Below are positions 8,602-62,913 of a stretch of DNA of 64,000 nucleotides, in pieces; the first letter of the stretch is position 1, and each line of letters begins with the position of its first letter. A program made the position numbers and the translations under genes. The notes beneath the pieces are model-generated. The model did not search any database, was not told where the DNA came from, and saw only the letters and a program-made list of their open reading frames with translations. Source of the DNA: Spirochaetia bacterium. GTDB lineage: Bacteria; Spirochaetota; Spirochaetia; JAFGXN01. The stretch is taken from positions 118,963 through 182,962 of the forward strand of contig JAXEIF010000029.1 of assembly GCA_034120015.1 (NCBI GenBank), read 5' to 3'.

Positions 8602-10293
8602 ATGAATGCGGTCCGGCAGGGGCGGAATGCGGCGGCGGCAGCGGTATCGCCGCTGTTGCTTTTTTTGGCGTTTCCCAATCCGCTGTTCGAACGCGGACTG
8701 CCGTTTTTTACCGTTTTCGGTCTTTTCCCGCTTTTTTATCTTTTACTGAATGCGGGCAAATCCCGCTATTTCTGGGTGCCTGTTGCGGGCGTTTTTACCT
8801 ATCTTTTTGTTCATTTCTGGCTTTATACTTTTAATCCTCTGGCAATGATTTTTGTCTGTACCGTTATGGGGATTGCTTATCTGCTGTTTGCGGTCTACGT
8901 ATCGGTTGTCCGCCGCTGTTTCGGTGAAAACGCCTATCTTCCCGCCGCTGCCGGGTTTACGGTATTTGAATATTTGAAAACCGTCGGTTTTCTGGCATTT
9001 CCCTACGGGATTTCGGGTTATTCCCAGTATTCGGTACCGGGGATGCGGGATATTGCTTCCGTTTTCGGGGTTTTCGGAGTTTCGTTTTGTCTGATTTTTC
9101 CGGCGGCATTTTTTGCGGCGGTGGCAGGAATGCCGGGGCGGGCAGAAGCGGCGGCCTTTATTTACCGTCAACGGCGACGGCTGACTGCGTTCGTGCTGTT
9201 GTTTTCTTTTATGATAATAGCAGGAACCGTTCATACGTCGACGATCAAGCCTCTTTCCGGGAAAATGCCGTCGGAGGATTGTCCGGCATCTGTCCGGATT
9301 TTGGCTGTGCAGCATTCGGGAGATACATGGACCGGCGGTTTGCCTGCTTACCGGCGCAATTACGAAATTCTGAAACATCTGACAGACCGGGCTCTGGCGG
9401 AAAACGAAACGGCCGGTCGGGCACCGTATGATATGGTGATCTGGCCGGAAACGGCTTTCGTTCCCGGTATCGAATGGCACAGCCGTTACAACACGTCTTA
9501 CGAGTCAAAGGAGCTCACGGAACAGTTTTTGGCGTGGGCCGAAACGGTTCCCGGAATTCTGATTACCGGTAACAGCGAGAGTTGTCTGGCCGATCCGCAG
9601 AAACCGCCGGTTGTCTACGATGCCGACGGAAACGGCTTCCTGAACCGTTATTCGTATAATGCGGCAGTCGTGCTTGAGCGCGGGCACATCAAAGGAACTT
9701 ACAGAAAGCGGCATCTGGTTCCGGTTGTCGAAGATTTTCCGTGGAAGGAGACTTTTCCGGGAATTGTCCGGTTTTTGGAAGCGCATGGTTGCCAGTTATG
9801 GACACCGGGTGAGGAAGCGGTTCTATTTAAAAGTATTTCGGGAGTTCCTTTTTCGGTAAATATCTGCTATGAGGATGTTTTTTCGGAAATCGCAAGGCAG
9901 GATGTTCGCAACGGACCGCGTCTGATGATTAATCTGACCAACGATTCGTGGTCGGGAACCAATGCCGCCCAAATGCAGCATCTGGCGATTGCCGTTTTTC
10001 GTTCGCTGGAAACGGGAATTCCGACGGTTCGGGCGACCAATTCCGGAATAACGGCTGTCATACTGCCGAACGGAACGGTTGCGGCGGAAGCTGATCCGTT
10101 TGTTAAAACAGTATTGAGTGCCGATGTCCCGCTTTACGCACCGGCGCCTGCGGCGAATGCCTTTGTTCTGCGCGATACTTTTCCGATTTTGCTGGCTGTA
10201 TTGTCGGCTGCGGCATTGGTGTTTCAAATTTTAAGAATAAGGAAATTTTCCGCGGAGAGCAGGCGGAACGGAAAACTTGTCAAAAAAAGATAA
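8602..10293 (+). CDS. lnt: apolipoprotein N-acyltransferase
   Basis: Polytopic N-terminal membrane region, then a carbon-nitrogen hydrolase domain (ILAVQH...VIWPETAF...ICYEDVF). Confidence 0.7.
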   Translation: MNAVRQGRNAAAAAVSPLLLFLAFPNPLFERGLPFFTVFGLFPLFYLLLNAGKSRYFWVPVAGVFTYLFVHFWLYTFNPLAMIFVCTVMGIAYLLFAVYVSVVRRCFGENAYLPAAAGFTVFEYLKTVGFLAFPYGISGYSQYSVPGMRDIASVFGVFGVSFCLIFPAAFFAAVAGMPGRAEAAAFIYRQRRRLTAFVLLFSFMIIAGTVHTSTIKPLSGKMPSEDCPASVRILAVQHSGDTWTGGLPAYRRNYEILKHLTDRALAENETAGRAPYDMVIWPETAFVPGIEWHSRYNTSYESKELTEQFLAWAETVPGILITGNSESCLADPQKPPVVYDADGNGFLNRYSYNAAVVLERGHIKGTYRKRHLVPVVEDFPWKETFPGIVRFLEAHGCQLWTPGEEAVLFKSISGVPFSVNICYEDVFSEIARQDVRNGPRLMINLTNDSWSGTNAAQMQHLAIAVFRSLETGIPTVRATNSGITAVILPNGTVAAEADPFVKTVLSADVPLYAPAPAANAFVLRDTFPILLAVLSAAALVFQILRIRKFSAESRRNGKLVKKR

Positions 10294-20699: not shown

Positions 20700-23396
20700 A
20701 TGAGAAGGTTCGGAAAGAGAGGACTGATTTTCGGATTATTTCTTTTTATGGGATGTGTCGGTGCCGGATGGGATGTCCCCGAGCTTTTTGAAAAACAGCA
20801 GACGACCGATCTTTCCTGTTTTAAAGGTGACGGCGAAAAAGCTCTTGCCGGGTGTGATACCTATTGGGTCGGCGTCGGAATCAGCGATTCGACGGAATAT
20901 CCGTCCGGACAGCTGTGCGGCGGTTATATCGAGTCCAGACAGAAAACAGAGGGTATTTTTACCCGCCAATGGGTTCGGGCATTCGTTATCGCCGAAGGAA
21001 AAAACGGTCCCCGCATAGCGATACTGATTTCCGATGATTGGGCTGTTTCACTGGAAATGCGGGCGGCTTTGATTGAAGAACTGTCAAAAAGCACGCAAAA
21101 AGGCAAAGACGGAACGGAGGTTTCTTTGTTGAATGACGGGTTGACTCCGTATTACAACGACCACAACGTTCTGCTGAATGCGACACACACACATACCGGA
21201 GTTATGGGCGATGCCCAACGTCATCAGTATAATATTTCAGCCGGCGGTTATAACGAAAATTTGATGATGATTACGGTTCGGGCGGCTGTCGAAGCGCTTG
21301 TCGAAGCACATCGGAATCTGGAACCGTGTACAATCGAATTCTCCAAAGGAAAACTGACCGATACATACAATATCTCCAAAAACAGGTCGTTTACGGCTCA
21401 CCTGAACAACGAAAGTGATATTTTCGATTACGGAATGACACCGGAAGAATTTGATGCGTTGCCCGAAGAAGAGGAGAAAGAAGCCTACCGGACGCATGAA
21501 GAGGCGACCGACAAAATGATGTATCTGCTCCGTTTTCGGACGGTCGACGGTCGTGATAAGGGCGCTTTAAACTGGTTTTCGGTTCATCCGACTTCGATCA
21601 GTGCTTCGTTCGGAATGATTTCCGGTGACAGTAAAGGGTTTGCGGCTCAGATGTTTGAAAGCATGATGGGGTCATCGGTAAATACCGATTCGGGTTTTGT
21701 CGCCGGATTTGCCCAGAGCGCTTTGGGAGATGTCGACCCGTGCCGTACCATTTATCACCGGGATAAATTCGGCTACTCGATTGATGAGGAAGCCGAAAAC
21801 GGAATTTATTCGGCACGGGCGCAGGCGGCAAAAGCAATGGAATTATATATGAAGCCGCAGTTTGCTGTTAAAGGACCTGTTGCGTATGCGACACAGTGGG
21901 TGGCAATGGATCGGGTTTTCCTGGATGATGAATTTGCGTACAAACCGGATGTTTATCCGCCCCGAACCTGGCCTCCGGCAACGGGATGGAGTATGGCAAA
22001 GGGTGCCGAGATTCATCAGGTGACGATGCCTCCCGGATTTGTCGAAGGAATGAGTCTGGAAAATGCAAAAAAACCCCGTCATGCTTTATTACCGTTGGTG
22101 CGTTGCCTGTTGGGGCCGTATAAAAATCTGGATACAAAACACGGTTTGCCTAAAATATTTTCTCCTTCCGACGAGTTGAAAGCGGCGCACTTCCCGAAAC
22201 CGATTTTAATGGCATCCGGTAATGCCAATCCGTCATGGATGGATTTGGATCTTCCGTTTCAGATTTTTCGAATCGGAAATATTGCCGTTATCGGCGCTCC
22301 TTTCGAAACGACGACTGTGTCCGGTCGCCGTATACGGGCAGAGGTTAAAAAGGCATTGGAAAAGGCCGGTCAGCCGGTTGAAGAGGTAATTTACTGCGGT
22401 AATTCGAATGCTTACGTCGGTTATATGGCAACGCCGGAAGAATACCGTTTACAGCATTACGAGGGCGGCTCGACTGCTTACGGCATTAACCAGGTTCCTG
22501 CCTGTCAGCAGGAATTTAGCCGGCTTGCCGGAAAACTGGCTGACGGTCAAAGCGGACGTGTTCCCGGTGATCCGGATTGGATTGTGACATCACCGCGTCG
22601 TGTTCCCGCCGATAAAATTGTTTATGCCAAAGAAAAAATTTACCCGGACCGTGTGCCGGCAGGGAAGGTGTTCGGAGAGCAGAAAAAACCTCTTGAAAAA
22701 AAAGAGTGGAAATCCGGAGAGGTATTTTCGGTTTCTTTTTATTCCGCACGTTTAAATACGGAAATTTTTCACAATGATTCGTATTTTTATATTCAAAGAT
22801 ACAGTCCGGAAAAGGCTGCCTGGGTGACCGAGACCGACGATGATGATTTCAACACCAATCTGTACTGGAAAAAAACAACGAACCGGTATTCGACAGCCGA
22901 TGTGATTTGGCGGATTCCTCCCGGAATCCGTGACGGTCTTTACCGCGTTGTTTATAAGGGAAGATTTCGAAAAACAGCAGATGTACGCGATGAAAACAGC
23001 ATCGGATCGTTCACCGGTGTTTCCGAAGAATTTGAAATTAAAGGGAGTGTTTATGCACCGTTATCCGGAACCGTGAGTCGGAAAGGAAACCGGATCGAAC
23101 TCTCTTTCGGGGGCGACGTTAGCGGAGACCTGTTAACATTTCGTCTGAAAGAAGGTTCCGGTGCGTTTGTCGGCAAAGCGATCGTCGATTTCGGAGACGG
23201 AACAAAGTATCCGATTTCGGCACTGATTGACGACGGAAGAACAATTCGGTTTCAGTCTCCGGATCGGAAAGTTTCGAAAATTGTTATAGAGTTTTCGGAA
23301 GCGTCGGACAACATTGCCGATTCTGTCGAAGCGTTTGAATTTTATGATACCGGAATCGAGAACCGCGTTAAGAAGTTTGAACCGTTTTGCACATAG
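20700..23396 (+). CDS. neutral/alkaline ceramidase-family lipoprotein with a long C-terminal extension
   Basis: Lipobox LFMGC. LLNATHTHTGVMGD and VHPTSISASFGMISGDSKGF resemble the neutral-ceramidase catalytic motifs (ATHTHSGP / HGTS...ISGDNKG). Confidence 0.45.
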   Translation: MRRFGKRGLIFGLFLFMGCVGAGWDVPELFEKQQTTDLSCFKGDGEKALAGCDTYWVGVGISDSTEYPSGQLCGGYIESRQKTEGIFTRQWVRAFVIAEGKNGPRIAILISDDWAVSLEMRAALIEELSKSTQKGKDGTEVSLLNDGLTPYYNDHNVLLNATHTHTGVMGDAQRHQYNISAGGYNENLMMITVRAAVEALVEAHRNLEPCTIEFSKGKLTDTYNISKNRSFTAHLNNESDIFDYGMTPEEFDALPEEEEKEAYRTHEEATDKMMYLLRFRTVDGRDKGALNWFSVHPTSISASFGMISGDSKGFAAQMFESMMGSSVNTDSGFVAGFAQSALGDVDPCRTIYHRDKFGYSIDEEAENGIYSARAQAAKAMELYMKPQFAVKGPVAYATQWVAMDRVFLDDEFAYKPDVYPPRTWPPATGWSMAKGAEIHQVTMPPGFVEGMSLENAKKPRHALLPLVRCLLGPYKNLDTKHGLPKIFSPSDELKAAHFPKPILMASGNANPSWMDLDLPFQIFRIGNIAVIGAPFETTTVSGRRIRAEVKKALEKAGQPVEEVIYCGNSNAYVGYMATPEEYRLQHYEGGSTAYGINQVPACQQEFSRLAGKLADGQSGRVPGDPDWIVTSPRRVPADKIVYAKEKIYPDRVPAGKVFGEQKKPLEKKEWKSGEVFSVSFYSARLNTEIFHNDSYFYIQRYSPEKAAWVTETDDDDFNTNLYWKKTTNRYSTADVIWRIPPGIRDGLYRVVYKGRFRKTADVRDENSIGSFTGVSEEFEIKGSVYAPLSGTVSRKGNRIELSFGGDVSGDLLTFRLKEGSGAFVGKAIVDFGDGTKYPISALIDDGRTIRFQSPDRKVSKIVIEFSEASDNIADSVEAFEFYDTGIENRVKKFEPFCT

Positions 23397-44558: not shown

Positions 44559-45257
44559 TTACTTCCGGATGATGAGGTTCATATTGTCGAGAACCTGTTT
44601 CAGCAGATTGTCGACAGTGATTTTGCGGATAGATGCCGTCTTTTCCAGGACTTCGGTCAGGATAGAGGATGGTTCTTCGTCGGTACTGTCACTTTCTATC
44701 AGCAGCCGGTCGGACGGGCATTCGCGAATTGTCTCGGCTGTTGCCGGCGAATAAAGCGAACGGCGTGAAAATGAAAGGAATACATTTTTTTTCAGAAAAG
44801 GTTCGGCATTTCGGAGCGAACCGACGAAAGAATGGTAAATCATTTTCGGATACGGAGATTTAATCACCGACAGGATGGTGTCATCGGCATGGACGGAATG
44901 GAATGTCAGAGGGCGTTCGTAGGTTTGTGCCAGATTGTAGTGATGGCGAAAATAATCAGTCTGTATTTCGATATTCGGATGAAGACGGTCTATTCCTGTT
45001 TCTCCGAGGAAAAAACCTCTGCGGACGGCTCTTTCCAGTAAGTCAAAATAGTATCCCGTGTTTTTGTATTTCGGCTTCCGCAGGTTCCATGGGTGAATCC
45101 CGGCAAAATAGTAGCGGCTTGCCGAGAAAGAGGGGAATTTTGAAAAGTCCGATTCGTCGATGCTGTTAACAAAAAGCAGGAATTCCGGATGTCCGCACAT
45201 TTGCGCGGCTTTCGGATGAATATGGGCGTCGCAGAGAGGCCTCTCATTTAAGCTCAT
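44559..45257 (-). CDS. tatD: TatD-family metal-dependent hydrolase
   Basis: Start MSLNERPLCDAHIHP... at ATG 45257; the longer track ORF begins at 45314. Also GETGID, HSFVG, ESDS. Confidence 0.6.
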   Translation of the reverse strand: MSLNERPLCDAHIHPKAAQMCGHPEFLLFVNSIDESDFSKFPSFSASRYYFAGIHPWNLRKPKYKNTGYYFDLLERAVRRGFFLGETGIDRLHPNIEIQTDYFRHHYNLAQTYERPLTFHSVHADDTILSVIKSPYPKMIYHSFVGSLRNAEPFLKKNVFLSFSRRSLYSPATAETIRECPSDRLLIESDSTDEEPSSILTEVLEKTASIRKITVDNLLKQVLDNMNLIIRK

Positions 45258-45657
45258 AAATATATGCTCCCATATTTTGAGCCAAACGGCGGTACGACCA
45301 TTCTTTATCGGCAACCGGTATTGTTTTTGTCAGGTTTTCGGTTGAGGATTCCGACGAAACGTTCACGCTGTAGATATTGATTTCTTTAATCAGAGCAGAA
45401 GGCGTCGGACAGAGTTTTCGAAATGCTTCATCATCGAGCGAAGAGGAAACAGACTCTCCCCCCGCAATCGATTGGGAATAAATTGTGTAAGTACCCGAAG
45501 CCTGGGAAGCGACGGATTTTTTGCTCCCGTCGGTTAAGACCGCTTCAAATCGCTGCGGCGACGAAGAAGCGGTTTTAATCTGATATAACGATTCGTATGA
45601 AATCGAAAACGAACAGGAGCAAAAGATCGTCAAAAACAGGATCGCCGATTTTTTCAT
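45244..45657 (-). CDS. hypothetical lipoprotein (Ser-rich)
   Basis: MKKSAILFLTIFCSC lipobox. 137 aa. Confidence 0.45.
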   Translation of the reverse strand: MKKSAILFLTIFCSCSFSISYESLYQIKTASSSPQRFEAVLTDGSKKSVASQASGTYTIYSQSIAGGESVSSSLDDEAFRKLCPTPSALIKEINIYSVNVSSESSTENLTKTIPVADKEWSYRRLAQNMGAYIYELK

Positions 45658-47588
45658 TTGACCGAAATTTCGTTAATCGATACGGCCTGGTCTTCGTTCA
45701 GAAAATCGATTCGAACTTCGAGTATGGCGCCATTGACAGCGCAGTCGGCGATTCCCTTTTCAAATTCTCCGACTTTTACCGGTGTTGCGGATCCTTCATA
45801 CAGAACCGAAACCGGTGTTCCGTCTTCAATACGTCCGTTCGGAGTATCATGGATGAAAAAACCTCCCGAAATAATTTGTAACCGGTTGTCTTTTGCATTT
45901 TGCGGTTCATTCCAACGCACAGAGAAAAAATCGCCGTTTTTGGGTGCGGAAGCCGACACGAAAGCATCGGCATCGCGACCGTTTACCGCGTATTCGGGGT
46001 AGGTGCTGTTTTTGTGTTTCAGGGATGTTGTCACGGAGGCGTTTACGGAATTTTGCAGCCGTTCCCGTGACGGCGTTTGCGCCGGAGTAATCCCTGTTTT
46101 GAGGATGACCGGAGTCAGTGTCTGCAGCCGTTTTTCAAATCCGGAAAAGTTCTTTTTGTTTTTTGCTGTCCACATCTGTTCCGAGAAGGCAAAAAGCCGG
46201 GGAAAAAGCATTTCGTCGAGACTGCTTTCGTTTACTTCTTCCGTCCACAGAGTGCAGGCTCCGCCGACAAAAAGATTTTTATTGCGGTTGAGTGCCGAAG
46301 GACGGAAATTATAGTTGTAAACTTTTTTAAGCGACAGAACCGGCATCCAGGCCGATTTGCATGTTCCGGCGTATTGCGGATAATCGAAGTAAGCGTAGTC
46401 TCCGGCCGCGTTCAGGGTTCTGATACCCGCGTTGAGTGATTGTGTAAGATAGGATCGGCCGACATAAGCCCGCCAGACCTGGGCGATGGCATGGTCGCTG
46501 ATTTTCAGATTCGGATATTCACACCAGTAAATCGGGGTGATTCCTTTTTCTTCGAGATAGGAAGCGTACTGTTTCAGGAAAACAACCAGCAGTTCTTTTT
46601 CCGTCAGATCGTTTTTTTTCATTTTCTCCGAGCATAAAGGACATTTTGCCCAGATACCGAGAGGAACTTCATCCCCGCCCATGTGAAAATATTCGGGGTT
46701 GCGGAAGATTGTCAGAACTTCGTCTAAAATCTCCGCCAGAAACGGAAACAGGTTCGGGTTGGCAATGCAGAGAATTTCCGTCCAGTCGCGGTTGGAGATG
46801 CGTTCGGAAACGGAGACGCGATCCCGGTTGGTCGGACATAAAAATTCGGGGTATGCTTCGACAAATGCGGCGGCATGTCCCGGCATATCGATTTCCGGAT
46901 AAACCGTGATACCCAATTCGGCAGCGCGGTCCAAAACGCGGTGTATTTCCTCAACCGTGTAAAAACCGTTGCGTTCCGATTCCGGGTAGCGTCCGACGCG
47001 GGACGAAATTGTGTTCAGTTTCGGGAATTTCTTGCTTTCGATGCGCCAGCCGTCGTTGTCGGTCAGATGCCAGTGGAGACGGTTAATGCGGGCAAATGCC
47101 AGTTTGTCCAGCAGTGCCAGAATCGTATCGCTGCTTTGAAAGTGGCGGGCCGAATCAAGCATAAATCCGCGCCATTCGGTTTCCGGCCGGTCGTTAACGG
47201 TAAAAGCGTTCAGGTTTTCGGTCTGTCCCGCTGTCTGAATCAGAGTTGAAAAAGCGTAAACAAAACCGGCTGTTCCTCCGGCTGTGATTGCGATCTGTCC
47301 GTTTTCGACTGTCAGGGAAAAAGCTTCGGCTCCCAACGTCGTGTCGGCTTTCATTTGCAGAGAAGCCTGATTTCCCTGTCGGGCCGAAATCGGAATGTTT
47401 TTCCCCATTCTGTTAAAGAAAGCAACCGCACCCGCGGCTTCTTTCGGACATACGGTGTATGTTAAAACGGCCGGAACGGAAGCCGCGTCGTCGTTAACCG
47501 TCATTTCCGCCGGAACCGGAATCAGCGCAGGACCGGCCGACCATCCGTTGAGCGAACAAAAAATAAATGCCATTAATAATTTTTTCAT
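45654..47588 (-). CDS. beta-N-acetylhexosaminidase (GH20) with signal peptide
   Basis: RINRLHWHLTDNDGWR, YPEIDMPGHAAA and HMGGDEV are GH20 catalytic motifs. 644 aa. Confidence 0.75.
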   Translation of the reverse strand: MKKLLMAFIFCSLNGWSAGPALIPVPAEMTVNDDAASVPAVLTYTVCPKEAAGAVAFFNRMGKNIPISARQGNQASLQMKADTTLGAEAFSLTVENGQIAITAGGTAGFVYAFSTLIQTAGQTENLNAFTVNDRPETEWRGFMLDSARHFQSSDTILALLDKLAFARINRLHWHLTDNDGWRIESKKFPKLNTISSRVGRYPESERNGFYTVEEIHRVLDRAAELGITVYPEIDMPGHAAAFVEAYPEFLCPTNRDRVSVSERISNRDWTEILCIANPNLFPFLAEILDEVLTIFRNPEYFHMGGDEVPLGIWAKCPLCSEKMKKNDLTEKELLVVFLKQYASYLEEKGITPIYWCEYPNLKISDHAIAQVWRAYVGRSYLTQSLNAGIRTLNAAGDYAYFDYPQYAGTCKSAWMPVLSLKKVYNYNFRPSALNRNKNLFVGGACTLWTEEVNESSLDEMLFPRLFAFSEQMWTAKNKKNFSGFEKRLQTLTPVILKTGITPAQTPSRERLQNSVNASVTTSLKHKNSTYPEYAVNGRDADAFVSASAPKNGDFFSVRWNEPQNAKDNRLQIISGGFFIHDTPNGRIEDGTPVSVLYEGSATPVKVGEFEKGIADCAVNGAILEVRIDFLNEDQAVSINEISVK

Positions 47589-47755
47589 TTTTCAGAGTCT
47601 CTCCCTGGTTTTGATTTTATAACGAAAAATTGAATCTGTCAAAACAATTTTACTTTTGATAACACGAAAACAGACAGCAAATTACATAATAACTTTTTGT
47701 TTTTTTTACACGTGCCGAAAATTTGATTATAAAATGTGAAATATAGAGGTGAACA

Positions 47756-48181
47756 ATGAAGAATAAATTGGTTTTGATTTTTTCCGTTTTGTTAATTTTG
47801 TCGGTTTTGGGCGCCTGTGATATGACAACCTCCGACAGTGTGGAAGGAATGTGGGTATCGCGTGCCGTGGAGCTCTCGGTGCTGTATGAGGAAATTTACA
47901 CTCTCAACAAAGGCGGATCATATATTTATGAAAGAAAACAGGATGGAAAGAGTGTATATGAAGAGGAAGGCTCGTGGATTACCGAGAAACAGACAGTCGG
48001 AAACTACGAAGAAGAACAGAGAGTGATTGCCTTTACTCCGAAATCTCCGAAAAATACAAAAGCATATGTCCGGCTCTATGCATTGGAAAACGGCGGAAAA
48101 CAGCTGGTTTTGGGGACTTACGATTTGGAATCGGATTCCGTCAGTAAACAGAAATACTACAAACAGGAGGTTTCGAAATGA
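47756..48181 (+). CDS. hypothetical lipoprotein
   Basis: MKNKLVLIFSVLLILSVLGAC lipobox. First gene of a co-directional lipoprotein cluster. Confidence 0.5.
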   Translation: MKNKLVLIFSVLLILSVLGACDMTTSDSVEGMWVSRAVELSVLYEEIYTLNKGGSYIYERKQDGKSVYEEEGSWITEKQTVGNYEEEQRVIAFTPKSPKNTKAYVRLYALENGGKQLVLGTYDLESDSVSKQKYYKQEVSK

Positions 48182-49743
48182 AAAAAATTGCTGTCGTTTT
48201 GGCCGTTGTCGCTTTGCTGTCCGGTTGCGGATGGGGAAGTCTGATGGGAGAAGAATTGACGGGCGGTCATTCCGTTTTGAGTGAATCCCTTTCTTCTGTC
48301 GGTGTGTTGCCTCCTTCCGGTATAAAGGGAACGATTACGCCCGAAAATTCCGCTTATACGGTTCTGATTACATGGGATTCCGTAGCCAATGCGAAAGAAT
48401 ACGAAATTTCCGTTACCGGTGATTATACAAAAACCGAGAAAGTTGATGTTTCCCAATTTAAATTTCCGGTTTCCCTGACGAAAGGGGATTCGTTTACGGC
48501 TTCGGTAACATTAAAAACTGTCAATATCAACGGAAAAGTTTCCGCAAAAAGTGCTCCTCTGGTGGTGTCTTTCGGAAGCGATTCCGTATATGGTGAACAG
48601 GTTCATGATTTTTATGCTTCCAGAGGAACGGAAACCTCGGTTTTGCTGACATATACACCGGCCAGGGATGCCGACCGGTATAAACTGGAGCGTCGAATGA
48701 CGGGGGCTCCGGATGATGCCGAGTGGGAGCTGATCAGTGCCGGTATTGTCAACGCCGATTCCTCGGCATCGCTTTATTATTATTACGATCAGACGGCGAA
48801 AGGCGGTTACTGTTACGATTACCGGATTACGCCGGTTGATGCGGGCGGTATCGCCGGTATTGCATCCGTGACGGAAGCCGGTTTTGTCTGGCCGTTGGCA
48901 AATGATTTGCGGGCAGGTCAGGGCGGCGAAGGTTTCTACAAAGACAATAAAGGTGTTTTTGCCGTCGAATGGGATATCCAGTCGTCACTGTTGGGGTACG
49001 GAGATGAGCCTGTTGATCCCGTTGCCTATCCCGAGTTGGGTGAAATTATGAACGGGTTAGGGTTCCAGTTCCGCGTTGCTTCGGGTGCCAGTCAGCTTGA
49101 TGAGAAAGACGCTAATTTTTCATCCGATTGGGGGCTTTCTGCCGGTATCGATGCTTTTTCCAATTATAACGGCGATGCCTGGGAAGGTTTTACTCCCGAA
49201 CAGGACGGTTTTACGGCTGCCGAAATGAGTGCTGTCGGCGGAGCCAAGATTTACAAAAAAACGGAAGGCTATATCGATACTTACCGTCTGTATGTTATCG
49301 TTGACGGAACATCCCACTCCGAAGATAACATGATTTGGGGTAAAAAGGGATATTTTCAGGTTCGTTCAACTTATGTTAAGTATCCGGCTCTCCCGTGGTC
49401 GAATAAGGCAAACGGATATGTTGTCGGTCCGACTGAGTCCGAAATCTGGAAAGACGGAACAGTTTCCGCAGTTGCTGATGCGCCGAACGCTGTCACGGTC
49501 AGCTGGACGGGAACAGAAGGCGCCGGTTTCCAGGGGTGGTATCTTTATATGAAGAAAGAGGGCGAAGCCGAATTTACTCAAATGGAAGATATCGGAACCG
49601 TTTCCGGTGCAGCATCGATGCAGATCGGCAGTCTGGCAGCCGGCAGTTACTGGTTCGGTGTGGCCGGTGTTGACGGTTCTGGAAAGAACGGAATCATTTT
49701 TGAAAGCGGAAAAGTTACGGTGTCCGACGGGGCATCCGAATAG
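48178..49743 (+). CDS. surface lipoprotein with FN3-like repeats
   Basis: MKKIAVVLAVVALLSGC. Repeated W..S/T...Y.Y/L.R-type beta-sandwich signatures. ATGA overlap with the upstream gene. Confidence 0.5.
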   Translation: MKKIAVVLAVVALLSGCGWGSLMGEELTGGHSVLSESLSSVGVLPPSGIKGTITPENSAYTVLITWDSVANAKEYEISVTGDYTKTEKVDVSQFKFPVSLTKGDSFTASVTLKTVNINGKVSAKSAPLVVSFGSDSVYGEQVHDFYASRGTETSVLLTYTPARDADRYKLERRMTGAPDDAEWELISAGIVNADSSASLYYYYDQTAKGGYCYDYRITPVDAGGIAGIASVTEAGFVWPLANDLRAGQGGEGFYKDNKGVFAVEWDIQSSLLGYGDEPVDPVAYPELGEIMNGLGFQFRVASGASQLDEKDANFSSDWGLSAGIDAFSNYNGDAWEGFTPEQDGFTAAEMSAVGGAKIYKKTEGYIDTYRLYVIVDGTSHSEDNMIWGKKGYFQVRSTYVKYPALPWSNKANGYVVGPTESEIWKDGTVSAVADAPNAVTVSWTGTEGAGFQGWYLYMKKEGEAEFTQMEDIGTVSGAASMQIGSLAAGSYWFGVAGVDGSGKNGIIFESGKVTVSDGASE

Positions 49744-49753
49744 GGGAGTTGTT

Positions 49754-52546
49754 ATGAAAAAACGTATAGCTTTGATTTTTTTATCGGTACTGCTGGTTGC
49801 CGGTTGTGCCAATCAGTTGCGGAGCCTGAACGGACAGGTCGTCAAGACAGCCGGAGCCGTGGAAATTTCCGATCCGCAAAACGATTATGTGATTGATGCC
49901 AATATCCCGATTCCGACTTCCGTATCGGCTACACAGGGCAATTTCAGCGATCGGATTCGGATTTCCTGGCAACAGGTTTTTTACGGAGATGCGCAGATTC
50001 AGTATCATGTATACAGAGAAGATGTTAAAAAAGACGGTGAGTCAAAACTGCTTCGTCTGACCGGTTACCGTCCGATTGCCCAACTTCACTACGATGATTT
50101 GGTTTCCGGAACGGTTGTGCCGGGAGCGGTTTACAAATATTATGTACGGGCGATTAATATGAGTTCGCCGAATACGGAAGGAAGTGTTCTCAGTACGCCT
50201 GTTACCGGATATGCGCTTTCCGGTGTTTCATCGATTTCTGCCGATTTCCGTGTTTCGACGGAAAAAGTGACGGTGACATGGAAAGAAGTGGAAGGGGCTT
50301 CTTTTTATTATCTCTACAGAGCTCCCGAACCGTATGAAAACGTTGTTCCCAATGAAGAGTCATTCGAACGGCTGAGTCAGGCTTTTACAACCACATCTTA
50401 TGATGATTACAGTGTTTTGAACGGAGGTTCTCTGGAATCGGGGAAAAGTTACTATTATTATGTCGAAGCGTGTTATGACCGGGAGACGGTGAGTCAGCGA
50501 AGCGGATTCGCACGCGGAGCTCTGCTGTCAGCCGGTGCTCCCGCCGAAGGGTACATCGAATCGGTTTCACAGGGCGAAATTCTGAATGCGATTCGTGTGA
50601 CTTGGAAAGCCGATGACAGTGCAACCGAGTACCGGGTTTACCGGTTGACAAAAGATAATATCGACGGCGGTGACTTTGTCGGTACGGAAATTGTTGTTCC
50701 TATCAATGAAACAAAAAAAGACGGAGATGCCGCTGTCTGGTACGATAAATCGACATCTGTCGGCAGCGGAGAGGAGTTCTATTATCGTGTTGCCGCCGTG
50801 AATGATTACGGCGCCGGATCGTTGTCTTCTCCGACGATTGCCGAAGATGTACTGGAGAGAAGCCGTATAACAGGAAAAGCGATTCCTTCTGCGGAAGGTC
50901 TGACGCCGTATGTTATGCTGACCAGAACGGGTTTTTATGTTTCATGGCCGTCCTGTTTTACGACAATCAACGGCGATGAAGGCTATTACCTGTTTGCGGC
51001 CGACGGCAGTACCGGCAGTGAACCTGCCGACGAAAACGGTTGGACGCTGCTTACGGCGGATCCCGTTAAGGCTTTGGATATGACACTCACCGAATCCGAC
51101 TTAAACGGCGTTTTGAACGGGGTTCCTATTGCCGATGCCAAACTCTATTTCCGCGTTTTACCGGTGAATACAAAAATGGTAACTTATACTTCCGGAAGCG
51201 GTATTGCTGTCGGTTCCGATTATACGAAATACGAAACGGAACTGGGTGAAGAGGCAGCCAAAACCTGTCTGGTCGGACGATCGACTTATACAAGGTCTCT
51301 CTATTTCGAGAAAAAGGCTCCCGTTCTGGTTTCGATTAAGGCAACAGAAGGAACCGAAATCGGAACCGTGAAGGTGACGGCAGAACTCGATTTGAATTCC
51401 GAAATGGGATATCTGTATAATATCAAACTGCAGAGAACCTGTTACTACGGTGACGAGGCGGGAGTTTATCCTTTGAGTTTGCCGCCGGCGAACACTGATG
51501 CCGACAAACATTTTCCGTTAAAAAATCAGCCGAAGAAGGCCAATACATCGACTTACCCGATGCAGGAATACTTTAAATCGGGAGTGATCGAATGGTCGGA
51601 TCCGATGCCGGACTATCTTTCCAACGGGCAGGAGAAAGGGACTGTCGTCTGGGATTATGCGACATGGGACAGAGAAGGCTGGAAGTGTATTCTTCGTCAG
51701 AAAGATGTCGATATGCGGCAGTTCATGAAGATCGAATACAAACTTGTTTCCGTCGCTCTTGATCCTGTTAGCGGTGCGGAAATGGGAGATCCTGTCGTAT
51801 TGAATACGACTCCGGCTGTCGGATGGCCCGATTTGAGTGACAAGGAATTTGCCCACCTGGCCAAATGGATGACCGACTGTGCGCTGAATACGATCTGGCA
51901 GTTGAATATTCCGCGTATGATGTGGGATAAAACGGTCGGCTGGTTGCCGAGTCTCAGTTTCAGCCACAACGGAGAAAAAGGCGGTCGTATGGATTTTAAT
52001 GTCGGAAGCGTAACCAATTTGAGCGGTTCCGGCGGCACAAGCGGAACAGCTTATTCCGACTGGAACGGTTACAGTATCAAACTGTCGATGAGTATGAAGG
52101 TTTCGCTCGAGTCGAACCAGCCGCGTCAGGTGACACTGAACGGGATTCAGGTGACGACACCGCTTTATTCGGGAACCATGGATATGCAGATTACCGTTCG
52201 TGACTTCGGTCCGTTCTGGGGACTCTGGTCCGAGTCAAACGGGACATATCAGAAAGGCGGTTATGTAAAGGTAAAACTGGGAAAGCGTGCAGCTGCCGAA
52301 TTTAATCCTTCGGAAATTATTATGAAAGGAACCGGCGCATCCGATGTTTTCGATTATCAGGTGCACGGCTATGATTGGGAGCGTGATTTGGATCCGAAAG
52401 AAAAAACATCGTATCCGGCCAAAGGGGGCGGTTCATGGCATTTTACGCGGATTAATTGGCCGGCCCGTCCGTATCCCGAAAATAATTCCTATATGATGAA
52501 TAAAGGAAACAAAGCGGCGATTGATTACAAAACAACGGCATGGTAG
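49754..52546 (+). CDS. large surface lipoprotein with multiple FN3-like domains
   Basis: MKKRIALIFLSVLLVAGC at ATG 49754 (the track ORF starts earlier at 49607). Repeats such as IRISWQQV..YHVYRE, VTVTWKEVEGASFYYLYRA, IRVTWKADDSATEYRVYRL. Confidence 0.5.
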   Translation: MKKRIALIFLSVLLVAGCANQLRSLNGQVVKTAGAVEISDPQNDYVIDANIPIPTSVSATQGNFSDRIRISWQQVFYGDAQIQYHVYREDVKKDGESKLLRLTGYRPIAQLHYDDLVSGTVVPGAVYKYYVRAINMSSPNTEGSVLSTPVTGYALSGVSSISADFRVSTEKVTVTWKEVEGASFYYLYRAPEPYENVVPNEESFERLSQAFTTTSYDDYSVLNGGSLESGKSYYYYVEACYDRETVSQRSGFARGALLSAGAPAEGYIESVSQGEILNAIRVTWKADDSATEYRVYRLTKDNIDGGDFVGTEIVVPINETKKDGDAAVWYDKSTSVGSGEEFYYRVAAVNDYGAGSLSSPTIAEDVLERSRITGKAIPSAEGLTPYVMLTRTGFYVSWPSCFTTINGDEGYYLFAADGSTGSEPADENGWTLLTADPVKALDMTLTESDLNGVLNGVPIADAKLYFRVLPVNTKMVTYTSGSGIAVGSDYTKYETELGEEAAKTCLVGRSTYTRSLYFEKKAPVLVSIKATEGTEIGTVKVTAELDLNSEMGYLYNIKLQRTCYYGDEAGVYPLSLPPANTDADKHFPLKNQPKKANTSTYPMQEYFKSGVIEWSDPMPDYLSNGQEKGTVVWDYATWDREGWKCILRQKDVDMRQFMKIEYKLVSVALDPVSGAEMGDPVVLNTTPAVGWPDLSDKEFAHLAKWMTDCALNTIWQLNIPRMMWDKTVGWLPSLSFSHNGEKGGRMDFNVGSVTNLSGSGGTSGTAYSDWNGYSIKLSMSMKVSLESNQPRQVTLNGIQVTTPLYSGTMDMQITVRDFGPFWGLWSESNGTYQKGGYVKVKLGKRAAAEFNPSEIIMKGTGASDVFDYQVHGYDWERDLDPKEKTSYPAKGGGSWHFTRINWPARPYPENNSYMMNKGNKAAIDYKTTAW

Positions 52547-52557
52547 GAGAGGTGAAA

Positions 52558-52992
52558 ATGAAAAGACTGACGGTACTTTTACTGATGATATTCGGACTGA
52601 TTTCCTGTCTGCCGGAAGGGTATTATCCGGCAACAACAGCAGGAATTACCGATTACTGGATTTTGGAGTCCGGCGAAATCACGGAGACGCTGGATTTGTA
52701 TTTCGAAAAGGGACGATACTGTTTTACATGGACGCGGCAGATTCAGGGGGTTGATATTGTCGATCCCGTAAAAGGTCATTATAATGTCCGCCGTGTTAAT
52801 GACTACGGCGAAAAATGGTATGTTCTGACGCTGATGCCGGAAGGTGAGAATCAGCCGATTTACTCTTATAAGATGACATTGTCACAGGATAAACGCGTTC
52901 TGGCTCTGGAAGGAAGCGGTATTTCGTATTATTACCGGGTTGAAAAAGAGAAAAATGCCGGTAAAGACGATGGAGAAAAAAGTAGGAGGTAA
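52558..52992 (+). CDS. small lipoprotein
   Basis: MKRLTVLLLMIFGLISC with ribosome-binding site GGAGAGGTG. Confidence 0.45.
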   Translation: MKRLTVLLLMIFGLISCLPEGYYPATTAGITDYWILESGEITETLDLYFEKGRYCFTWTRQIQGVDIVDPVKGHYNVRRVNDYGEKWYVLTLMPEGENQPIYSYKMTLSQDKRVLALEGSGISYYYRVEKEKNAGKDDGEKSRR

Positions 52993-52995
52993 AGA

Positions 52996-55386
52996 ATGAA
53001 AAAATCTGTTCTGTTTTTGGCAACAGTATTGTTCCTTATCGGGTGTCCCGAAGGAGAAGGAAAAAATATCGATGTGGCTCCGCGGATTACTCTGATCGGA
53101 CCTTCCGAAGTCTTTTTTAATGTCGATGATATTTATATCGAATACGGTTATACAGCAACCGATGTCGACGGGAACGATGTTTCGTCTCTCGTGCGACGCG
53201 ACACTTCAACGCTGAATATGGGAAAAGAAGGCTCTTATCAGGTTTCCTATGTGGCAGTCGACCGTAAAGGAGTAAAATCGGATGCGGTTTATAGAACCGT
53301 TAATGTCGGTAATGCGTTTGCTCCGGAAATAACCATTTCCGGATCCAATCCCCTTCTGTTGAAGCTGAACGGAGAGTTTACGCAGCCCTCGGCAACCGCT
53401 ATGGCGTATGACGGCACCGATCTGAGTGACTCGATTCAGGTCAATGCGGAGAGTGTCGATACGACCAAAGTGGGGACTTACATTGTTTCTTATACCGTCA
53501 CCGATTCGAGCGGAGTGACCGGCACAGCTCAGCTTTACGTATATGTAATGGAATCAAGTTCACCGCGGATTATTGTGGAAGGGGTCGGTGCAATAGCAGA
53601 TAATCCGTATCCGCTTCAGGTGCAGGGAGCATCAGCAAGCGATGAGACTGTTAAATCTTATTTGAACAAAGCGTTGCCCTATTTTCAGGCCTACGATTTG
53701 GAGGACGGAGATATTTCTTACAAAGTAACGGTCAGCGAAGATGAAGTGTACAATAATCTTATTTCTGCTTTGAAGGCTGATTCGGCTTCAGACAACACTC
53801 CTAAGGCGTTGACTTTGACAGTTTCCGATTCTAGCGGTAATACTCCCAGTCCGCTTCCCGTATTTTACGTAACGGTGGTAACCGACACAACACCGCCTGT
53901 TATTACTCTTGCAGATGATCAGCCGATGTATACCATCGAAATAGATGCATGGAACGATAACACAAAAGCGTGGAATGAGCTGTTTCAAAAGTTGGGTGCA
54001 ACAATTATAGATGATTCCATGGAAGAGTATACTCCGAAGCCGTTTACACCGAATACACCGATTGATGGTATTTCAGAACACGGCATAGATGATACGGCTT
54101 TGCGTGCCGCTTTGACAATGAACGGCGATCGTGATCAATTTTTGGCCAATTATGATTACAATAATGCGACGGCTCCGCTTAACTATAAGAAGGTGACATT
54201 GTGGGCGAAGGATATGGCCGGTAATTCAGTTACAAAAGAAATTACCGTTTATTTGACCGATACGACCGCACCGGAAATTATTAAATCAAATATTACGATC
54301 CCCTTTGGAATTTCGGCTGTTTCCAGCTCTCATCAATTACGGTGGCAGGATAATTCAGGTGCGGAAGGATCTTGTTCCGGTCTTGATTTGGCGGCAATCG
54401 ATAATGCCTTGACGGAAGGTTCTTTTAACGTTACTTTTACAGCGATGCATCCAAATAATCCGAGTAAATCGTCTACTTTGACTTACCCGGTTCGGGTCGG
54501 TTCGCCCCTATTATCTCCGTCTGGCGGCAGTTGGGTAAATAACAATCTTCTGGCACAGGCGGGGGTTAATTATAATTTCTTGACAAAAGCATCTGATTAT
54601 ACCGGTAATGACGGAAAAGGTGTAGCTAAAAATCTGAAACCGATTACACCTATAGGATGGAGTTTTGCAACACCGCGAGATGGTAGTTCCGGAGAATGGT
54701 ATTGGACTTCACTGTTTTCCAGCGGACATGGGCCTATTAATGCTGTCAGTGCGGCTGATCCGAACAATGACTGTATTGTCTGTTGCGGGGTGCTTTATCC
54801 TTCTTCTGCTCCTACAATAGGTGCCTACTTGACATGCGGGAATATCGGAGTGGGTGCTGCTTCTACAATGATTAGAAATGTTAATGTTGCGATTTCGACT
54901 ACAGCCAATGTAACTTTGTATAATGGCGTAACTTATGAAATCGGCTATGATGCGGCTGATTTTAAAACATCTGGATCAGCTTTAGGAGATACAGGAGGCG
55001 CGCGCTATTTGGATGTCGCACGAACAGCTGGAACAGGTACTTTTGGAGGACAAACAATTTATAGTGTTTCTCATACGGCTGCGGTAAAAACCAATAAGGA
55101 TACCTGGGCCTATGAGCACATGGGGTTCGTCGGTAATTACAGCGGATCGGAATGGGAAAATCAGTCAGGACAGACGACGATTAGCGGTGGAAATATCACT
55201 TCTGTTAGTTTGCTTTACTCGATTCTTGACCCAGGTAATAGTGCCGATTACGGTTCGCTTGTTACTAATTTCCGTATTTGCCCCGTCAAATGGAAAGGCA
55301 AACAGGATAAAACGAAGCCCGACTCGCCGATCGGCTACTGGAATTACGATACCTCTTCCGGTGCTGTAACCTGGTCCGAAAATTAA
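52996..55386 (+). CDS. surface lipoprotein with DUF5011/Ig-like domains
   Basis: MKKSVLFLATVLFLIGC. PRITLIGPSEVFFNVDDIYIEYGYTATDVDGNDVS is a typical DUF5011 pattern, repeated (EITISGSNPLLLKLNGEFTQPSATAMAYDGTDLS). Confidence 0.5.
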   Translation: MKKSVLFLATVLFLIGCPEGEGKNIDVAPRITLIGPSEVFFNVDDIYIEYGYTATDVDGNDVSSLVRRDTSTLNMGKEGSYQVSYVAVDRKGVKSDAVYRTVNVGNAFAPEITISGSNPLLLKLNGEFTQPSATAMAYDGTDLSDSIQVNAESVDTTKVGTYIVSYTVTDSSGVTGTAQLYVYVMESSSPRIIVEGVGAIADNPYPLQVQGASASDETVKSYLNKALPYFQAYDLEDGDISYKVTVSEDEVYNNLISALKADSASDNTPKALTLTVSDSSGNTPSPLPVFYVTVVTDTTPPVITLADDQPMYTIEIDAWNDNTKAWNELFQKLGATIIDDSMEEYTPKPFTPNTPIDGISEHGIDDTALRAALTMNGDRDQFLANYDYNNATAPLNYKKVTLWAKDMAGNSVTKEITVYLTDTTAPEIIKSNITIPFGISAVSSSHQLRWQDNSGAEGSCSGLDLAAIDNALTEGSFNVTFTAMHPNNPSKSSTLTYPVRVGSPLLSPSGGSWVNNNLLAQAGVNYNFLTKASDYTGNDGKGVAKNLKPITPIGWSFATPRDGSSGEWYWTSLFSSGHGPINAVSAADPNNDCIVCCGVLYPSSAPTIGAYLTCGNIGVGAASTMIRNVNVAISTTANVTLYNGVTYEIGYDAADFKTSGSALGDTGGARYLDVARTAGTGTFGGQTIYSVSHTAAVKTNKDTWAYEHMGFVGNYSGSEWENQSGQTTISGGNITSVSLLYSILDPGNSADYGSLVTNFRICPVKWKGKQDKTKPDSPIGYWNYDTSSGAVTWSEN

Positions 55387-55393: not shown

Positions 55394-55417
55394 ACCGCCC
55401 CTTTGGGGCGGGTTTTT
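55394..55417 (+). terminator. rho-independent terminator (ACCGCCCC-TTT-GGGGCGG + T5)
   Basis: Read directly after the stop at 55386. Confidence 0.75.
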
Positions 55418-55496: not shown

Positions 55497-55525
55497 TTGA
55501 CAAAACCGGACGGAGAAGTTATTAT
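55497..55525 (+). promoter_or_regulatory. sigma70-like promoter for tRNA-Met (TTGACA-17-TATTAT). About 7 nt to the tRNA 5' end.
   Basis: cTTGACAaaaccggacggagaagtTATTATaaaacatGGGCC. Confidence 0.6.
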
Positions 55526-55533: not shown

Positions 55534-55607
55534 GGGCCTATAGCTCAGTCGGTTAGAGCACTTGACTCATAATCAAGGTGTCCCAGGTTCAAGTCCTTGT
55601 GGGCCCA
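55534..55607 (+). tRNA. tRNA with CAT anticodon. Elongator Met or lysidine-modified Ile2; the G1-C72 pair argues against an initiator.
   Basis: GGGCCTATAGCTCAGTCGGTTAGAGCACTTGACTCATAATCAAGGTGTCCCAGGTTCAAGTCCTTGTGGGCCCA. Followed by terminator AACGCGC...GCGCGTT + T7 at 55608-55637. Confidence 0.8.
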
Positions 55608-55678
55608 AACGCGCTGTTTTTCGGCGCGTTTTTTTATTTTTGCTTGTCACAGAATCCGTCGTCGTGGTATAATAAACC

Positions 55679-60042: not shown

Positions 60043-62913
60043 ATGATAAAAGATGGTTTGAATATTTTATGCAGAAAAAAGTTTCATATCAGGGGACTGA
60101 TTTTCCTTCTTGCCGTGATCGGGTTTATCGGATGTCCCAATCCGACAGATCAGGGGGGCAGTTCCGTTAAACCGAAGCCTACAGAAAAGAGAGAGGGACT
60201 TTTTAATCAGGATATAAAATTGGGAGACGATGTTAAATCCGTTGTTAACCGTTTTGGAGAACCTGTTCATGAGCGGGTGCTGACAGAAGAGGGTGCTTAT
60301 ACTGTTACTTATACGGATGAGAAAAAGGCCGTCATGATTCTCGATAAAACAGCGCCGCAGCTTAAATTTGTAAATACATCGGCCACTTTTGATTTATATC
60401 AGCAGATTCCTTTTGAGGACAGTGTTCCGGGAACAGCATACGAGGATGCAGTTTTTTCCATGTGTTCTGAGGAAATGGCTATTCTCGGGTATTCCGGAAT
60501 CGACAGCTATGTAACATATTCTGCCACATGGCAGGGTGGAAAGGTTCCGACAACGCCCGGTACCTATGTTCGGGTCTATACCGTAACCGATCAGGCCGGA
60601 AATACAGCATCACCGTTTGAATGGCCTGTAATTGTGTACGATAGTAAAGGTAATCCGCCTTTTGAGACGGGTTCCATTCTTGTGGAAGGGGGAAATCCGA
60701 TTTCGGAGCAAACAACATACTGGTTTAAAGAAATTTCTTCTCTGACTTTTTCTCTGCCGGATTGTACTGCCGGCGGGAATCCCTCTTATTCATGGAAAGT
60801 CAATCAGCAGGAGAAATCAACGGCGGCAACATTGTCGCTTTCGCAATCGGATTTGAAAGAAGGCGCCTATCTTATAACAGCAGCAGTGAAAGATGAAGGC
60901 GGACAGGTCGGGTGGACATCGGTTTCTGTGGTTATCGACCTGACAAAGCCTGTCGTGAAAAAAGGGCCGGCAGTTGTTTACGGTTACAGTATTGAAGAAC
61001 GGAAGAATTTTAATGAGACAATCGGTCTGATGCAGATCGAAGAGACCGGGTCGGGGGTAAAAGAGATAAAAGGCGAATTTCAACCGACGGTTCCGTCGGA
61101 TCAGGATGTGCAGTTAAATCAACCGTATACAAGATCGGTTGTCGTTACCGACAAAGCAGGGAATGTCAGTGATCCGTTTACCTATACGATTATTTTCAAA
61201 GGATCGATGCAGGAAGATGATGAGAAAAATATGACGGGAACCGACGCAACGCCTGTTTCCGCTGCCGGTTTTCCTACGCCGACACCGGCGCAAATTGACT
61301 GGATGGCGATGGGGCAGTATGCCTTTATTCATTGGGGCCCCAATGCTTTCGGTGCCGGACGGATCGGTAACGGAGAATGGGGTAACGGATATCCGTACGG
61401 AGCGGAAGCGTTTAAACCGACACGAAGTGCGGATGAGATCACTCAAGGATGGATAAATGATATTGTCACGGCAGGAATGACCGGTTTGGTTTTTGTGGCA
61501 AAACATCACGACGGTTTTTGTCTGTGGGATACGGTTACGACGCAGTACTCGGTTTGTAAACAGGGGAGTAATTATTCCTATTATGGTGAAGATTTTCTGA
61601 AAGCATTGATTTTAAATATGAAGCAGTATAATGAATCACATCCCGAGGCGCCTTTAAAATTGGGGGTTTATGTGTCACCTTGGGATCGTAACAACTGGAC
61701 TTACGGAGGAGTCGAGCAGGTCGCGGACGGAAAAGATTTTTATCCCTATTTGGAATATGTATTCAGAACTCAGATAACGGAAGTCATCGAATATGTGGAG
61801 ACATACGGCGACGGTAAAGTGTCGTTGTTTGAGCTCTGGCTCGACGGTGCCAATACGCCGTCCGGTTGGTACGGCGGTAAGAGTTACGCCGAACATAAGG
61901 CAGAAGGGGCAAATGTTTCGGTTGAAATTGATCCGGTAACAAATCGTTCAATAATTCAGACTTTCAACGAAGTCTATGATTGGGAATCAAAAGTCGAAAA
62001 TCCGAATGAGGCAATGCGGGAAGTTGAATTGCCGGATGACTGGAGAGACCGGATTTATGCGGTGGCGCAGGAAGTGGTTGACAGCTACAATACGGCATAT
62101 AGCACGGAAGTCATGATTTTCGGAAGTCAGATCCGGTGGGTCGGTAACGAACAGGGATGGGCAGGCCGAACAAACTGGATTACAGGATACGGTGTTTCTG
62201 GGGAAGAAAAAAACAATAAAGTCATTCCGGCAGAAGCTGATATGAAAACTCAAGACGGCTGGTTTTTTACGCCAAACGAAGATAAAGGATCGGCCAAGAT
62301 GATTGAATTTTGGTACAGATCTGTCGGTCGTAATGCCACGTTGTTATTGAATTTTTCGCCGGATACGGCAGGAAGAATTCCGTCGTATAATTTAAATTCT
62401 GCTCAAAAAATGTGGGAAACGGTATCGTCTGATTTTGCGGATAATATTGCCGTCCGCGTTTCCCGAATTACAGCGAGTAATATTCGAAACAATCATCGGA
62501 ATTTTTCCCCCTATAAGGTTATTGACGGTCAATACGATACATACTGGTCTGTAGACGATGCGGCGGGTGCCGGTTCCGATCAGTGGATTCAGTTGGAATT
62601 TGATGAAGCTGTTTCCTTTAATCGCGTTGTACTGCAGGAAAATATAGCCTTCGGACAACGTGTCCGTTCATTTACTGTAGAATACAGAAACGGTAAAAAG
62701 GATACATGGAAGATTCTGCCGTATTCGAATATGCCGACAACTATTTCCGGTGATACGGATGACCCGGACATTACAACAACGATCGGGTTTAAACGAATCC
62801 TGCGTCTCAATACGGTCAGCGCAACCGATGTACGCGTGACCCTGAAAGAGTTTCGAAACGGAGAAAAATTTCCTGTTGCGCTTTCCGAACTGGGATTGTA
62901 CTACGCGAGGTAA
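60043..62913 (+). CDS. lipoprotein alpha-L-fucosidase (GH29) with an N-terminal Ig-like/DUF5011-type module and a C-terminal F5/8 type C (discoidin) domain
   Basis: Lipobox IGFIGC. GH29 motifs HWGPNAF...FVAKHHDGFCLWDT. C-terminal YKVIDGQYDTYWSVDD...QWIQLEF is discoidin-like. Terminator AAGGCTCTC-GGAA-GAGAGCCTT + T at 62958-62984. Confidence 0.65.
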   Translation: MIKDGLNILCRKKFHIRGLIFLLAVIGFIGCPNPTDQGGSSVKPKPTEKREGLFNQDIKLGDDVKSVVNRFGEPVHERVLTEEGAYTVTYTDEKKAVMILDKTAPQLKFVNTSATFDLYQQIPFEDSVPGTAYEDAVFSMCSEEMAILGYSGIDSYVTYSATWQGGKVPTTPGTYVRVYTVTDQAGNTASPFEWPVIVYDSKGNPPFETGSILVEGGNPISEQTTYWFKEISSLTFSLPDCTAGGNPSYSWKVNQQEKSTAATLSLSQSDLKEGAYLITAAVKDEGGQVGWTSVSVVIDLTKPVVKKGPAVVYGYSIEERKNFNETIGLMQIEETGSGVKEIKGEFQPTVPSDQDVQLNQPYTRSVVVTDKAGNVSDPFTYTIIFKGSMQEDDEKNMTGTDATPVSAAGFPTPTPAQIDWMAMGQYAFIHWGPNAFGAGRIGNGEWGNGYPYGAEAFKPTRSADEITQGWINDIVTAGMTGLVFVAKHHDGFCLWDTVTTQYSVCKQGSNYSYYGEDFLKALILNMKQYNESHPEAPLKLGVYVSPWDRNNWTYGGVEQVADGKDFYPYLEYVFRTQITEVIEYVETYGDGKVSLFELWLDGANTPSGWYGGKSYAEHKAEGANVSVEIDPVTNRSIIQTFNEVYDWESKVENPNEAMREVELPDDWRDRIYAVAQEVVDSYNTAYSTEVMIFGSQIRWVGNEQGWAGRTNWITGYGVSGEEKNNKVIPAEADMKTQDGWFFTPNEDKGSAKMIEFWYRSVGRNATLLLNFSPDTAGRIPSYNLNSAQKMWETVSSDFADNIAVRVSRITASNIRNNHRNFSPYKVIDGQYDTYWSVDDAAGAGSDQWIQLEFDEAVSFNRVVLQENIAFGQRVRSFTVEYRNGKKDTWKILPYSNMPTTISGDTDDPDITTTIGFKRILRLNTVSATDVRVTLKEFRNGEKFPVALSELGLYYAR

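Follow-up and report, generated by a model that had tools for sequence, protein, structure and literature searches.

We analysed a 64,000-nucleotide (nt) stretch of DNA from a Spirochaetia bacterium (contig JAXEIF010000029.1, positions 118,963 to 182,962; hereafter the window), in which five consecutive genes on the + strand, g1 to g5, form a cassette of lipoproteins at 47756–55386. The first, g1 (47756–48181), encodes a small lipoprotein of 141 amino acids (aa) with the lipobox LGAC and its cysteine at position 21. It is followed by g2 (48178–49743; 521 aa; LSGC, Cys17), by g3 (49754–52546; 930 aa; VAGC, Cys18), which is the most conserved member of the cassette, by a second small lipoprotein, g4 (52558–52992; 144 aa; LISC, Cys17), and by g5 (52996–55386; 796 aa; LIGC, Cys17). 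An earlier note on this DNA had described five consecutive lipoprotein genes with a signal peptide and a Cys lipobox, and this was borne out for all five: each protein has a basic MK(K/R) n-region, a hydrophobic core and a lipobox cysteine at position 17–21, the N-terminus of a signal peptidase II substrate that defines bacterial lipoproteins. When a simple regular expression was applied to the 49 gene-like open reading frames (ORFs) of the window, only eight had a lipoprotein-type N-terminus, and five of these eight were g1–g5. Lipoboxes are retained in every member of all paralogous cassettes. The window also encodes Lnt, the apolipoprotein N-acyltransferase (LNT_N plus CN_hydrolase; 8602–10293, +), and thus a lipoprotein acylation pathway is present, which is consistent with triacylated lipoproteins in the source organism; Lgt and Lsp are not encoded within the 64-kb window.

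The anatomy of the locus is that of one operon, and we infer that the five genes are co-transcribed. A single non-coding region of 167 nt (47589–47755, +) precedes the set, as described earlier, and is common to g1 and a divergent glycoside hydrolase family 20 (GH20) gene. Within it, a putative sigma-70-like promoter, TTTACA (47707) and TATAAA (47735) spaced by 17 nt, can be read by eye on the + strand ahead of g1; a consensus promoter scan found no + strand site in 47589–47755, because the −10 hexamer of this candidate ends in A. A Shine-Dalgarno sequence, GAGGTG, lies directly before the ATG of g1. The g1/g2 junction is a 4-nt ATGA overlap, and the remaining gaps measure 10, 11 and 3 nt, with a separate Shine-Dalgarno sequence at every one. 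Three overlapping or coupled junctions had been claimed for this locus; g1/g2 is the sole one in the window, and it is in the relatives L005 and L006 that three and four 4-nt overlaps, respectively, are found. The strong terminator that had been placed after the cluster is indeed there: an intrinsic terminator (55395–55417, +), consisting of a CCGCCCC-TTT-GGGGCGG hairpin with 7 G-C pairs (55395–55411) and a T tract, closes the set.

Two of the gene starts deserve comment. For g3, the ATG at 49754 (MKKR) has its own GGGAG Shine-Dalgarno sequence, yields a lipoprotein signal, and matches the gene call made on an identical contig from a pig-gut metagenome; a GTG start at 49607, which would add 49607–49753 (+) and overlap g2 by 137 nt, was rejected as a mechanical longest-ORF artefact. 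For g4, the start at 52558 (MKRL) follows the Shine-Dalgarno sequence GGAGAGG and is likewise the start called on that contig. The G+C content of the cassette is that of its flanks, and an Rfam scan returned two tRNAs only, with no riboswitch or leader RNA.

The order of the five genes is conserved well beyond the window. It is retained in the exact or near relatives L002–L006 and L009, which come from pig-gut and other metagenomes and metagenome-assembled genomes (MAGs) labelled uncultured Spirochaetes, Spirochaetales or Spirochaetia. It is found again in a different neighbourhood in L008, L013, L014 and L015, with Tex and HflX on the upstream side and POR on the downstream side; L008 also has an AMP-binding enzyme downstream and lacks GH20, and its identity to the window is 49% for g1, 43% for g2, 57% for g3, 55% for g4 and 36% for g5. 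Deeper paralogues have g3 at ~30% identity (L016–L022) or ~24% identity (L024–L026). As examined by ORF calling and tblastn, the paralogous loci follow a common plan of a 128–163-aa protein, a 514–833-aa protein, a g3-like protein of 930–960 aa, a small protein and a protein of 700–820 aa, all of them lipoproteins, and their large members have no catalytic or carbohydrate-binding module (CBM) domains, just Ig, FN3, PKD and leucine-rich repeat (LRR) domains. Since orthologues, and deep paralogues at unrelated sites, preserve both the order and the content of the set, the sequence comparisons support the view that the five genes behave as a single dedicated unit, a conserved and repeated module. 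Scattering of the homologues in relatives, which the earlier note had named as grounds for abandoning its proposal, was looked for; they are clustered instead.

The plan has variants. Type C cassettes (~30% identity) contain an additional, sixth Ig-repeat lipoprotein; it is 851–1171 aa long, has ASH/HYDIN/DUF1573-type Ig-like repeats, and overlaps or abuts the g5-like gene (L021:15512-19027, L022:15526-19038, L017:15130-17685). In type D cassettes (~24% identity) the fifth gene is g2-like, not g5-like. A Spirochaetales MAG, ZodW_Metabat.38, carries two tandem units (L023:4341-22481), each made of a small lipoprotein, a ~1700-aa FN3/Big_13 lipoprotein and a ~910-aa g3-like lipoprotein. Between these units lies a 366-aa lipoprotein with BspA-type LRRs, and the ~1684-aa protein of the second unit itself bears the g3 C-terminal domain.

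When 185,579 species-representative genomes were scanned with a motif, g3 relatives came up in just five MAGs, all of them uncultured Spirochaetes. These five have 3–4 g3 loci each, with up to four cassettes in one MAG; in one MAG the g3 copies are at 91, 58, 32 and 24% identity. The source MAG of the window (‘MAG: Spirochaetia bacterium’) also contains a second-type g5. A synteny check in related Treponema had been suggested; no named Treponema was among the cassette carriers found. A further homologue search with a deep alignment gave no additional distant members, and our literature searches turned up no account of a spirochaete locus of this kind.

The cassette also appears to have an internal history of duplication. 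Plain BLASTP among the five proteins revealed no paralogy. Profile comparison with hhalign aligned the g1 and g4 families with a Prob of 98.7%, and with 97% (E 9e-11) after removal of the signal peptides; at the level of profiles, g1 and g4 are remote paralogues. Likewise, g2 and g3 aligned with a Prob of 98.2% over 262 N-terminal columns, having in common the signal, the linker and two FN3 domains, while g2 and g5 shared the signal peptide alone. From the g1–g4 and g2–g3 relations, the operon looks like two units with a small lipoprotein first in each, g1+g2+g3 and g4+g5, which would be ancestral duplicates each headed by a lipoprotein of ~140 aa.

The large members had been described as built from repeated FN3-like and DUF5011 modules. 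This holds for the stalks, with FN3 domains recognised by sequence or fold match in g2 and g3 and PF16403 in g5; but g2, g3 and g5 are not repeats alone, and in the domain predictions each is a stalk plus a non-repeat globular domain. In g2, two N-terminal FN3-like domains (aa ~46–238) and a C-terminal FN3 domain (aa ~426–521) flank a central region (aa ~239–425) to which profile matches assigned no domain. With its C-terminal domain the g2 family profile matched titin FN3 at E 2e-15, and with its N-terminal part it matched a Clostridium Fn3-like protein; g2 homologues match Pfam fn3 and GH85_C, and isolated matches to CBM_4_9 or CBM_35 reach E about 0.02 only. In g3, the N-terminal part comprises a linker, about four FN3 domains (aa ~53–485; 49910–51208, +) and an Ig-like domain (aa ~515–565).

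The remainder of g3 is an unannotated domain of ~365 aa (aa ~566–930; 51449–52543, +), which is the best-conserved and slowest-evolving part of the cassette. Alignments revealed ~20 invariant charged or aromatic residues in it, including D616, W633, Y635, D639, R640, E641, W643, K644, R648, N712, R721, D769, R816, D817 and W825. In an exhaustive profile search the domain was also found in lipoproteins of ~600 and ~1650 aa, where it stands behind PKD, Big_13 or Y_Y_Y domains; the contigs of the short ones are too short to tell much of their context. It has no relative in Pfam, NCBIfam or the sequences of the PDB. The AlphaFold2 (AF2) model of g3 is confident, and a search with the whole model, which leaves room for weaker similarity, gave this domain no PDB fold match above the FN3 background. 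The small lipoproteins were similarly without annotation. An orthologue or paralogue of g1 is present in every cassette. Lipocalin_4 (PF13648) was matched weakly by 1 of 15 members of the g1 family (E 8e-4) and by 1 of 13 of the g4 family (E 0.16); g1 and g4 of the window do not match it, g1 has no Pfam or PDB match, and profile searches of the PDB with the two families were empty. Judged by these searches, two protein families are unannotated, that of the C-terminal domain of g3 and that of the small lipoproteins g1 and g4.

In g5, two PF16403 (DUF5011) Ig-like domains (aa ~28–186; 53077–53553, +) score 86.1 bits over two stretches against a gathering cut-off of 27, whereas g1–g4 have no PF16403 match. 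Further Ig-like domains with helical inserts follow (aa ~190–525), and the protein ends in a beta-sandwich head (aa ~526–796; 54571–55383, +). NCBIfam matches to LapB_rpt_80 and Lepto_OmpL47 fell below cut-off (33.9 vs 45 bits and 21.6 vs 250). The structural model of g5 has a pLDDT of 81.8, and of >90 for aa 300–796. Its top structural matches are all carbohydrate-binding modules plus one Bacteroides SGBP; the head resembles beta-jelly-roll CBMs in fold (CBM70 4d0q, CBM61 2xom, CBM16 2zew, and CBM4) at 12–17% identity, and no Pfam CBM model matched it. The predicted structure thus gives the C-terminal head a CBM-like fold. Structure prediction and a fold search of the members had been proposed, and their yield was the domain folds of g5, this head included, and of the N-terminal part of g3. 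Across 38 homologues, g5 identity falls from a mean of 69% in the membrane-proximal part to about 29% in the distal head.

Host-glycan foraging had been proposed from the adjacency of GH20 and GH29 enzymes, and we could not uphold it on that ground. The GH20 gene (45654–47588, −) does adjoin the cassette, diverging from g1 across 47589–47755, and the association is a loose one. The GH29 alpha-L-fucosidase with an F5/8 type C domain (60043–62913, +) is not a neighbour: it lies 4.6 kb away, separated from the cassette by tRNA-Met and four housekeeping genes, which are glgA and the genes for a methyltransferase, an LPG_synthase_C protein and argH. In L002, L006 and L009 a Na/Pi cotransporter occupies its place after argH, and GH29 therefore looks like a lineage-specific insertion, not a cassette partner. 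We rejected both enzymes as obligate partners, GH20 being missing from L009 and from all the other cassette types. Beside other cassettes we found a GH2-malectin enzyme directly upstream (L020), a CHB_HEX_C/PI-PLC-X lipoprotein (L022), an SSF symporter (L024) and a GFO/IDH/MocA oxidoreductase (L017). Glycoside hydrolases thus flank two cassette types, GH20 in the window and GH2-malectin in L020, and the association of the cassettes with glycan metabolism is suggestive, not consistent. With adjacency this weak, the case for glycan foraging is carried by the fold resemblance together with these glycoside hydrolases.

Several other features of the window were recorded. A 137-aa lipoprotein without Pfam match (45244–45657, −) begins with a 4-nt overlap of the GH20 stop; all type A loci have preserved it, and it is retained in L009, though GH20 is gone there. 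The idea that it belongs with g1 and g4 in one family was considered and rejected, as it aligned with g1 at a Prob of 38% (a 45-column match) and with g4 through its signal peptide only (Prob 69%). The tRNA-Met gene (55534–55607, +) stands alone between the cassette terminator and glgA, with its own promoter-like site, TTGACA-17-TATTAT (55497–55525), and terminator (55607–55631). Farther away, an 898-aa protein (20700–23396, +) combines a lipobox N-terminus, MRRFGKRGLIFGLFLFMGC, with neutral/alkaline ceramidase N- and C-terminal domains (E 1e-96), and may serve this gut spirochaete as a secreted or anchored enzyme that degrades sphingolipids.

We propose, at about an even chance, that the cassette is one operon whose modular set of lipid-anchored envelope proteins acts jointly in binding, as a single apparatus; the outer surface would be its most probable site and polymeric glycans its most probable ligands. 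The FN3 stalks of g2 and g3 and the Ig-like stalks of g5 would hold globular domains off the membrane. The g5 head diverges fast, so this CBM-like domain would be the ligand binder that sets specificity, and the g3 C-terminal domain would be the conserved core, either a scaffold or a yet-unrecognised enzyme. The 3–4 diverged cassettes per genome would presumably each serve different ligands. A lipid anchor, an FN3 or Ig stalk and a distal head, together with the CBM-like end predicted for g5, fit a binding or adhesin-type role. The dedicated surface assembly or adhesin of the earlier note is therefore supported in its unit behaviour and binding-type architecture; surface exposure and physical association, like glycan binding, are what we infer beyond these. 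Several observations weigh against the proposal. Surface and periplasmic locations cannot be told apart from the sequences of spirochaete lipoproteins. GH20 is missing in L009 and absent beside all other cassette types, and is thus dispensable; type B cassettes sit among housekeeping genes; and there is no transporter gene in or beside the cassette. No member matched a CBM or CAZyme family by sequence in Pfam or NCBIfam, and g1 and g4 are without an assigned fold, the lipocalin-like lead being weak.

The same architecture would suit a family of adhesins or surface-coat proteins aimed at proteins or cells (host epithelium, microbes or particles), with the cassettes providing antigenic or tropism diversity. 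A variable head borne at the tip of FN3 or Ig stalks is a typical adhesin design, the distal head is indeed the fastest-evolving part of g5, paralogous cassettes number 3–4 per genome, and one related locus carries the BspA-type LRR lipoprotein. We nevertheless consider this explanation unlikely, if the most credible of the rivals: it does not account for g5 having only carbohydrate-binding modules and a Bacteroides SGBP as its top structural matches, nor for glycoside hydrolases beside two cassette types, and the strong conservation of the g3 C-terminal domain is a misfit with immune-driven variation. A second alternative is a surface enzyme complex. The C-terminal part of g3 would then be catalytic, a glycoside hydrolase, lyase or peptidase domain of a new kind, with its substrate bound and presented by the remaining lipoproteins. 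The ~20 invariant residues (D616, D639, E641, D769, R648, R721, R816, D817 and many Trp/Tyr) persist to about 22% identity and in differently headed lipoproteins, in a domain that evolves more slowly than any other part of the cassette and belongs to a confidently modelled protein. However, Pfam, NCBIfam, PDB sequence and fold searches showed no similarity to a known enzyme, and the conserved residues could equally make a binding or protein-protein interface, leaving this explanation improbable in our judgement.

Finally, the five genes might simply be co-located, encoding independent and possibly periplasmic lipoproteins whose order reflects duplication history alone. The single overlapping junction in the window and the g2-like fifth gene of type D cassettes speak for such independence, but order and spacing are kept down to 24% identity and in unrelated neighbourhoods, relatives have three or four 4-nt overlaps, and a single terminator closes the set. 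We regard this as the least probable of the explanations.

Taking the cassette as a surface binding apparatus, we compared it with characterized systems. In Bacteroidota, the surface glycan-binding lipoproteins (SusE/SusF and SGBP-B types) and the extra surface lipoproteins of the SusCD ‘utilisome’ show a like architecture, and the Ig-like spacer and CBM-like head are both found in the cassette; glycan binding is the predicted element here. The utilisome surface lipoproteins served as the comparison design (PMC13450635). There is no sequence homology with Sus systems and the phylum is another; the two would be analogous, not homologous. At no locus did the cassette or the 10 kb around it contain SusC (the TonB-dependent transporter) or SusD, and Sus systems have no counterpart to the pair of small partner lipoproteins or to the C-terminal domain of g3. 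A bolder version of our proposal, which we hold to be rather unlikely, is that the cassette is a spirochaete-specific, all-lipoprotein analogue of the utilisome for polymer capture without a TonB-dependent transporter. In it, the conserved core formed by the C-terminal domain of g3 would represent a novel fold or enzyme family, the small lipoproteins would be dedicated partners (anchors or export chaperones) of the large stalked members, and the 3–4 cassettes per genome would be tuned to different substrates.

With PF16403 above cut-off, g5 resembles DUF5011/Bact_surface_Ig-like proteins, and it has the weak LapB_rpt_80 and Lepto_OmpL47 matches; the rest of g5 and all of g1–g4 are unrelated to Leptospira OmpL47-type and LapB-repeat proteins. 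Within spirochaetes, the dentilisin locus of Treponema denticola (PrcB-PrcA-PrtP) is an operon-encoded lipoprotein complex at the outer membrane that includes a small member. The cassette is likewise an operon of several lipoproteins, small ones included; unlike dentilisin, its members have no subtilisin or other peptidase domain in family scans, and there is no sequence relation.

The cassette is thus a new set within the operon-encoded surface binding lipoproteins, and the function we assign to it derives from fold resemblance. Pigs, ruminants and non-industrialised humans commonly carry gut spirochaetes. To our knowledge these bacteria are without the Sus-type systems of Bacteroidota, and polymer capture at their surface is largely unknown; an ordered, multi-copy module of five lipoproteins is a concrete candidate for seizing polymers there. 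If the glycan-binding reading is true, the cassette would solve the capture of glycans at the surface in an independent way, and if it is false, it would still be a defined surface-protein system in an uncultured lineage.

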